Assembly (NCBI GenBank): GCA_964432435.1
Contig: CAYSNL010000001.1
Location: 10,511 to 74,510, forward strand
Length of the DNA stretch: 64,000 bases
Origin: Candidatus Woesearchaeota archaeon
GTDB lineage: Archaea; Nanobdellota; Nanobdellia; SCGC-AAA011-G17; JACPIM01
Direction: 5' to 3'
The translations under genes were made by a program, and so were the position numbers. Each line of letters opens with the position of its first letter. Positions within the stretch are counted from its first letter, which is position 1. The notes under the pieces are model-generated. The model was not told where the DNA came from, searched no databases, and saw only the letters and a list, made by a program, of their open reading frames with translations. Shown one piece after another: positions 27,491-27,955 of the stretch.

Positions 27491-27955
27491 ATGTATGAAG
27501 ATATAATAGTTAAGTGGGAACCAAAATTACATAAAATGCTTCAAACTTGTCCAGTCTATGGCATTGATCAAGAAGAAATATTACAGGAGATGAGAGCAAC
27601 TATCATAAAGGCTATAAAGCATTTTGATGAAAGTAGGGGAGTTAAGTTTCATACATATCTCCATAAAGCATTATTAAATACTCTTCTGATTCTGAGGTCT
27701 ACTGCCCATTTGAATTTAGGATATGCTTATCTAAAACACGAAGATAGTTTCTCAGACAAACAAGATGATTGGAGTTTTATACAAGAGGCTAAATTAACAA
27801 ATCCAGAAATTATTGTGCTAGATTTAGTAATGTGCGGGTACAAAAGAAATGAGCTTTACAGAATGACAGATGATCTTATTAATATGAAAAAAGTTTATAA
27901 TAGTCTTAAAAGAAAAATGGCAGCGAGCCGCCATGAAAAAGAAATTAGAGTTTGA
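27491..27955 (+). CDS. Sigma-factor-like protein (sigma-70 region 2-like)
   Basis: IKAIKHFDESRGVKFHTYLHKALLNTL resembles sigma-70 region 2.1-2.2 (...[22 protein letters not shown]). Confidence 0.45.
   Translation: MYEDIIVKWEPKLHKMLQTCPVYGIDQEEILQEMRATIIKAIKHFDESRGVKFHTYLHKALLNTLLILRSTAHLNLGYAYLKHEDSFSDKQDDWSFIQEAKLTNPEIIVLDLVMCGYKRNELYRMTDDLINMKKVYNSLKRKMAASRHEKEIRV

Follow-up and report, generated by a model that had tools for sequence, protein, structure and literature searches.

A 64,000-nucleotide (nt) stretch of contig CAYSNL010000001.1, hereafter the window, contains an open reading frame (ORF), complete from ATG to stop, for a 154-amino acid (aa) protein that, judged by sequence profiles and a structural model, is a minimal two-domain factor of the sigma-70 family. 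It consists of a σ2 domain, a linker and a σ4-like domain, and has neither σ1.1 nor σ3. The window, in which nearly every gene lies on the + strand, is part of a tailed-phage genome spanning at least 93 kb, and we consider it likely, short of confident, that this sigma binds the core of the host RNA polymerase and redirects it to phage promoters. A phage-encoded sigma is a known viral strategy, indeed a classic form of host-transcription takeover, and few such proteins have been dissected (T4 gp55, SPO1 gp28 and gp34, and phiEco32 gp36). The family reported here is itself new and uncharacterised. With its two domains, it ranks with the smallest sigmas of this kind. Its deposited name is "hypothetical protein," and a widespread phage clade carries it as a fixed core gene; neither the family nor the zinc-finger gene that precedes it, p136, has been studied before. 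If the protein acts as a sigma, it would provide a compact orthogonal sigma for synthetic biology and an entry point to the temporal programme followed by a large environmental phage group. A first-pass annotation of the window had already interpreted this gene as a sigma, and this interpretation survives in its core; the accompanying likening to late sigmas and the link to the nearby translation initiation factor IF3 do not hold as stated.

Region 2 signature and two-domain architecture

The first-pass annotation had aligned the peptide FDESRGVKFHTYLHKALLNTL, residues 45–65 of the protein (nt 27623–27685), to sigma-70 region 2. Profile comparison confirms this similarity. Residues 9–65 match the Pfam family Sigma70_r2 (PF04542) with 31.8 bits, above the gathering cut-off of 24 (E = 1.2e-7), and the whole protein matches PHROG 351, "RNA polymerase sigma factor," with an E value of 1.4e-6. 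In addition, 23 NCBIfam sigma models match at E < 0.06, each below its naming cut-off, and the scores against the SigH, SigF/G, RpoE, FliA, and RpoH models fall far under every cut-off. At the level of sequence, the likeness to region 2 is statistically solid and beyond chance.

An AlphaFold model of the protein, with a predicted local distance difference test (pLDDT) score of 89, has a linker that joins a σ2 bundle to a σ4-like helix-turn-helix (HTH) domain (Table 1), so that both the helical-bundle fold of σ2 and the HTH fold of σ4 are present in the model. The σ2 domain, made of helices 2–19, 27–44, and the first part of 53–89, holds W9, P11, Q32, F53, T55, and the FDESRGVKFHTYLHKALLNTL peptide, and superposes on known σ2 domains at 2.1–2.6 Å over ~70 residues. 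The linker, ~25 residues long, varies in length across the family. The σ4-like domain carries the conserved motif L-T-x2-E...G-Y-x3-E-I...L-K-x-K. Structure searches with the model return almost exclusively sigma factors, the best Foldseek match being a SigH model. When a profile built from an alignment of 37 full-length family members was compared with all PDB sequences, there were 98 distinct matches at E ≤ 1, and all 60 of those listed are sigma factors. The best is the sigma-H of Fusobacterium nucleatum (3mzy; E = 6e-11), which aligns over profile positions 27–156 and includes both conserved blocks of the family. The first-pass description of a 154-aa protein consisting of region 2 plus a short C-terminal part was thus right as to size and region 2, whereas the C-terminal part is modelled as a folded σ4-like HTH domain and no mere tail.

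Aligned with SigA, the family motif EDlaQeL falls on QDLIQEG, and FhTYLh falls on FSTYAT. These segments are, respectively, the core-binding helix of region 2.2 and the part of region 2.3 responsible for −10 element binding and DNA melting. The most conserved residues of the family (Q32, F53, T55, and Y56) fall on them, and conservation at the Q-E and F-x-T-Y positions lends indirect support to core binding and promoter-specific initiation.

Among characterised systems, phiEco32 gp36 is the closest functional analogue: this phage sigma, which likewise has σ2-like and σ4-like domains, transcribes middle and late genes with help from gp79. It is likened to the window sigma by fold and not by sequence, and many cellular sigmas match the fold at least as well. 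The promoter of gp36, AATGTA at −11.5, has no demonstrated counterpart in the window, and for gp79 no homology to transcription factors is known, p136 being an HTH/zinc-finger protein. The closest proteins in sequence and structure are cellular sigmas of the sigma-H and ECF types, which share with the window sigma the σ2-linker-σ4 arrangement without σ3. Consistent with this, 36 of the 37 family members match TIGR02937 (sigma70-ECF) at E < 1e-3, no subfamily being predominant. The window sigma differs from these cellular proteins in scoring below the NCBIfam cut-offs, in keeping the F-x-T-Y typical of group 1–3 sigmas, and in being viral, with no confirmed cellular members and no recognisable anti-sigma gene downstream.

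The likening to phage late sigmas made in the first-pass annotation is not supported. T4 gp55 is without σ4 and depends on gp33 and on gp45, the sliding clamp. The window sigma has a σ4-like domain of its own and so departs from the gp55 type, which is σ2-only and uses late promoters of the TATAAATA type. Annotated sigma-70 proteins of Bacillus phages (sporulation-like) and of Synechococcus phage S-CBWM1 are among the BFVD structural matches. They are larger (~200–250 aa) and resemble specific cellular subfamilies, which the window family does not.

A core gene of an uncultivated phage clade and its constant neighbour p136

A word-indexed search identified a single close homologue of the sigma (P0002; 67% identity), on a contig with the same succession of genes: TSCPD, sigma, an overlapping small ORF, IF3, a deaminase, and an SNF2 helicase. 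The ratio of nonsynonymous to synonymous substitution rates (dN/dS) between the two is ~0.16, with dS near saturation. When 1.84 billion cluster representatives were searched exhaustively with HMMER, the family grew to 157 of them at E ≤ 1e-3, 70 of these at E ≤ 1e-10, mostly 150–230 aa long. Scanning IMG/VR with patterns of the family confirmed 152 relatives, and 80 of their loci were retained for comparison. In the alignment of 37 members, 35 of which match Sigma70_r2, there is an N-terminal conserved block (QWEPKVH...EDxAQELR...FDxxRGxxFHTYLH) and a C-terminal one (LTxxE...LxLxGYxxxEI...LKxK). W9, P11, Q32, F53, T55, and E106 are nearly invariant and G116 is invariant. The gene is conserved family-wide under purifying selection.

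The family appears confined to uncultivated phages. A pattern scan of 185,579 GTDB genomes confirmed no cellular homologue, and JGI metagenome contigs yielded no closer relatives. Against 50,697 phage records, neither the window (megablast) nor the sigma (tblastn) found a match; other family members gave weak tblastn matches (25–35% identity) to sigma factors of S-CBWM1 and of Bacillus phages. No second paralogue of the family occurs in the window. The sigma gene holds a fixed place in the core genome of a large phage clade that is represented by more than 150 IMG/VR contigs and has no cultured member.

The gene that accompanies sigma throughout this clade encodes p136. In the window it directly follows the tail-fibre gene, 1.8 kb upstream of sigma. 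When the neighbours of sigma in the window were compared with all ORFs of the related loci, p136 homologues were found in 75 of the 81 other sigma loci, always upstream of sigma and on the same strand, separated from it by −74 to ~1,900 nt (60 nt or less in 18 loci). In the six remaining loci the sigma ORF begins within ~720 nt of the contig end, which leaves 75 of 75 informative loci. The reverse search, starting from p136 patterns, found the sigma family in 77 of 78 loci; the exception has only 20 nt downstream, which gives 77 of 77. The pairing is a robust observation, and a functional coupling of the two proteins is hypothesised from it. Caution is needed in reading it, since the related loci form one clade of conserved gene order (tail fibre, p136, sigma, a 154-aa ORF, an 81-aa ORF, DnaB, primase, DNA polymerase), in which DnaB (79/82 loci) and primase (76/82) co-occur with sigma as frequently as p136 does (76/82). 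In most loci other genes sit between p136 and sigma. One of these, seen in 27 marine relatives (e.g. L066, 3988–4404), is a ~138-aa ORF that was identified by eye as Hsp20/alpha-crystallin-like.

The N-terminal HTH of p136 follows the pattern KIIxLRxxNPxxTLxQIxxxxxVSRQYVHKVLK, and the two zinc-type motifs have invariant ligands (C63, C66, C/H78, and C82 in the first; C93, C96, C122, and C126 in the second). One member of the p136 family exceeds the Pfam thresholds for Sigma70_r4 (26.9 versus 24.1 bits) and HTH_11, the others remaining sub-threshold, and the Cys-rich half matches the MYM-type zf-FCS finger weakly. PHROG matches are to DNA-binding proteins and, for the Cys-rich half, to an internal segment (171–247 of 361) of a PHROG labelled HNH endonuclease. 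Because only this internal segment is matched, we read it as a shared DNA-binding module, without the nuclease domain. Sequence comparison thus predicts that p136 is a DNA-binding protein with a σ4-like/HTH_11-like HTH. A single-sequence structure model was unusable (pLDDT 39). No homologue of p136 was found in the 50,697 phage records, nor confirmed by pattern scanning of the GTDB genomes. Two identities proposed for p136 were discarded: as a duplicate of the σ4 domain of sigma, since hhalign shows no similarity between them, and as the small terminase, which is unlikely with TerL 31 kb distant. Neither p136 nor p71, the small protein encoded immediately after sigma, matches an anti-sigma family, and p136 also lacks the H-x3-C-x2-C arrangement.

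Proposed mechanism and competing explanations

The structural block of the genome ends, and the non-structural block begins, at the sigma gene, which therefore sits at their junction, at the head of the replication block. In the mechanism we propose, it would be transcribed from there by the host holoenzyme soon after infection. The protein would then bind the host core, σ2 contacting the β' clamp helices and σ4 the β flap, and the core so engaged would be redirected to phage promoters of middle and/or late genes, as phiEco32 gp36 does. The general scheme for sigma factors is that σ2 on the clamp helices reads the −10 element while σ4 on the flap tip reads the −35 element (PMC12276001). Behind this proposal lie the region 2 signature, the two-domain fold, the conservation, the fixed genomic position, and the absence of an RNA polymerase from the part of the genome examined; core binding, its timing, the promoters recognised, and any role of p136, p66, or p71 are what we infer.

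Several results weigh against this proposal. The best NCBIfam model, TIGR02937, scores 22.3 bits, well short of its cut-off of 42.9. The W-W pair found in region 2.3 of primary sigmas is replaced by K59-A60. For region 4, the Pfam models Sigma70_r4 and r4_2 are silent, both for the window sigma and for its family; a profile of the C-terminal part only does align with region 4 of 3mzy, at a borderline E value of 0.0018, followed by LuxR/GerE HTHs. The absence of an RNA polymerase family, which favours the proposal, holds for the ~76 kb of the genome of at least 93 kb that precomputed Pfam calls and scans covered.

The promoter search adds to these points. The first-pass annotation had suggested looking for a conserved motif upstream of structural genes, and none rose above chance with any of the approaches used (consensus, k-mers, TATAAAT, intergenic alignment, and 8-mers). 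A scan for the σ70-type consensus found 82 sites where 77 were expected, and TATAAAT, the T4 late-promoter word, occurs 46 times against 38.5 expected. Pairwise alignment of intergenic regions, done as in PMC4331800, gave top scores no better than shuffled sequences, and no 8-mer was enriched in the intergenic regions of 35 dereplicated related loci. Because phage-sigma promoters are few and notoriously missed by sequence analysis alone (PMC4331800), this negative result leaves a sigma function unrefuted.

Individual candidates were examined and rejected. A T4-like late promoter, TTCTATAAATG, has three exact copies in the structural block (at 1355, 18487, and 20859), and was discarded for three reasons: one copy coincides with a TAA/ATG junction of stop and start codons, 11-mers present in triplicate number in the dozens, and TATAAAT shows no enrichment. 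A block conserved 5' of DnaB in marine relatives, GTAGACTATTTAGTATATT...AGAGTCTT, occurs once per locus as the C terminus of the 81-aa ORF; it is in frame with that ORF, so its conservation is coding and does not mark a promoter. The 165-bp gap 5' of p66 and sigma derives from a 70-aa ORF, which the related locus L001 retains intact; in the window it has decayed until just the last ~23 codons are recognisable, and there is no unusual RNA structure. AGGACCTRTA repeats, considered as a dispersed operator or promoter, are restricted to a single array (Table 1).

A first alternative, which refines the proposed role and is compatible with it, is that the sigma works only with p136, which would co-activate it, displace the host sigma, or serve as an anti-sigma, much as gp79 works with gp36 in phiEco32 and gp33 with gp55 in T4. 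The co-occurrence of the pair in every informative locus, with order and strand unchanged, the short gaps seen in some of them, the predicted DNA binding of p136, and the improbability of its being a small terminase all speak for such a dependence. As the constant neighbour, p136 is a tangible candidate for a sigma accessory factor of a new kind. The equal frequency of DnaB and primase suggests that the pairing may be mere clade-wide synteny, and genes have been inserted between the two in most loci. A mirror-tree comparison gave no added signal of co-evolution: the pairwise distances of p136 and sigma correlate with r = 0.72, inside the range of control pairs (0.59–0.81). The lack of profile similarity between the two proteins and the poor p136 model also count against the dependence, which we regard as unlikely.

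The most far-reaching version is that sigma and p136 form a two-protein system for promoter recognition or host-sigma displacement that would define the uncultivated clade, joined here by IF3 so that both transcription and translation initiation are captured, possibly in a host of the candidate phyla radiation (CPR), in keeping with the bin label "Daviesbacteria" at NCBI. We view this as doubtful. The double takeover by sigma and IF3 had been put forward in the first-pass annotation, and the IF3 on which it draws is genuine: judged by its domain scores (PF05198, 81.9 bits; PF00707, 89.9 bits; TIGR00168, 155.3 bits versus a cut-off of 60), the product is a full-length phage-encoded IF3. Huge phages have been reported to encode IF3 (PMC7162821), and a PHROG family exists for it (PHROG 9787). 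The association, on the other hand, is lineage-specific. IF3 adjoins sigma in two loci only, the window and L001, and the other 80 lack this adjacency, which argues that sigma and IF3 are no conserved functional unit.

The identical 154-aa protein is deposited at NCBI as [quoted passage not shown] The corresponding contig of 109,932 bp, although binned with this CPR lineage, proves to be the genome of a tailed phage, carrying genes for tail tube, fibre, TerL, and portal as well as a replication module, and no link of it to a CPR host was seen; its binning is a lesson for annotation. The nearest cellular relatives of the IF3 are in Treponemataceae (50% identity) and in many Alphaproteobacteria (43–46%), with no CPR sequence among the matches listed, so that the Daviesbacteria label says little about the host.

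It is improbable that the sigma is an auxiliary factor that reprogrammes host genes and leaves phage genes untranscribed, as proposed for the sporulation-like sigmas of Bacillus phages. Sigma homologues occur in 13.4% of reference phage genomes, some of them serving a host programme and being non-essential (Schwartz et al.; PMC9429907), and the weak tblastn matches of family members include Bacillus-phage sigmas annotated as sporulation-specific. The window sigma has, by contrast, no close homologue in the GTDB genomes and scores far below the cut-offs of the NCBIfam subfamilies, and its fixed position beside replication genes, as a core gene of the clade, is unlike that of a recently captured accessory gene.

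We give equally little credence to a sigma-derived protein that does not initiate transcription, either a decoy that occupies the core and shuts off host transcription or a free-standing HTH DNA-binding regulator. The very small size, the missing W-W melting dyad, a region 4 so divergent that the Pfam models miss it, and the negative promoter search would fit such a protein. ECF sigmas, on the other hand, are fully functional without the W-W dyad or σ3, and the family keeps the two-domain geometry with a linker of ECF-like length; the residues that it conserves most are also shared with bona fide sigmas, in the segments that bind the core and the −10 element. That the ORF arose by chance or was annotated in error, for which small size alone could speak, is refuted by a domain match above a curated threshold, a family of 157 representatives, purifying selection, and a confident fold.

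Genome context of the sigma gene

Table 1. Positions of the sigma gene, its domains, and other features of the window
Feature	Position	Strand	Description or basis
Structural genes	1–25.3 kb		Tail-tube domain protein, 1416-aa protein, 1011-aa fibre-like protein
Inverted repeat	384–434		13 bp, perfect
p136	25298–25708	+	136 aa; N-terminal HTH and two zinc-binding motifs; homologues across clade
Small genes	25.3–30.5 kb		tRNA-His, tRNA-Leu, sigma, IF3
TSCPD-domain protein	25906–26211		101 aa, free-standing, near sigma
tRNA genes	26458–26662 and 35847–36385		His(GTG), Leu(TAA), Met(CAT), Ile(TAT)
ORF remnant	27122–27286		165-bp gap
p66	27287–27487	+	66-aa ORF; ends 3 nt before sigma start codon
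Sigma gene	27491–27955	+	Sigma-70 family, 154 aa; ATG-to-stop ORF
σ2 domain	27491–27724	+	~Residues 1–78; Pfam residues 9–65, SigA alignment, superposition, conserved columns
Linker	27725–27790	+	~Residues 79–100; pLDDT 57–79 in blocks 71–100, gap-rich in family alignment
σ4-like HTH domain	27791–27952	+	~Residues 101–154; helices 104–114, 119–125, 129–152
p71	27933–28148	+	71-aa ORF; overlaps last 23 nt of sigma gene
IF3	28233–28718	+	161 aa; Pfam IF3_N and IF3_C, TIGR00168, PHROG 9787
dCMP-deaminase-like proteins	29422–29760 and 44767–45246
Replication/nucleotide metabolism	30.5–~55 kb		SNF2 helicase, DnaB, primase, family-A DNA polymerase, ThyA, ThyX, deaminases, Dam methylase, RecA
Iteron-like array	38188–38309		Candidate replication origin
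ThyA and ThyX	42362–43249 and 43581–44363
Aldehyde dehydrogenase	53098–54585	+	PF00171, 495 aa
TerL	56496–58121
Ribonucleotide reductase	58081–60354		Own TSCPD domain; between TerL and portal
Portal	61163–63082

The sigma gene is flanked by two small ORFs (Table 1). p66, on its 5' side, is conserved in L001 only (E = 7e-22; dN/dS ~0.12) and is probably co-transcribed with sigma. p71 is kept in L001 with an identical overlap (61% identity; dN/dS ~0.23), and could be a lineage-specific regulator of sigma. Neither matches a family in Pfam or PHROG.

Other features of the genome were noted in passing. Four tRNA genes lie in two places, and L001 has a tRNA-Leu(CAA) at the place equivalent to the window tRNAs. 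Both ThyA and ThyX are encoded, as are two dCMP-deaminase-like proteins, and an aldehyde dehydrogenase gene adjoins genes for an AAA ATPase and an NT5C nucleotidase. The ribonucleotide reductase has an odd location. Just past the end of the window, near the portal, the locus L087 (order: portal, a NUMOD3 protein, then the gene in question) encodes at 12874–14913 a protein of 679 aa in which DUF192 and ADP-ribosyltransferase (PF03496) domains are combined. It may modify host proteins in the manner of T4 Alt, which would make it relevant to host takeover.

Two repeats complete the picture. In a 227-bp AT-rich gap 3' of the primase region, the iteron-like array has four direct AGGACCTRTA-type copies, spaced by 22–28 nt, plus the inverted copies TAGGTCCATTAT / ATAATGGACCTA, and is a candidate replication origin. 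Inside the structural block, after a gene ending at 363, the inverted repeat AGGGAGGAAGTAG / CTACTTCCTCCCT has perfect 13-bp arms around a 25-nt loop; a T-rich stretch follows it, and it looks like a terminator.
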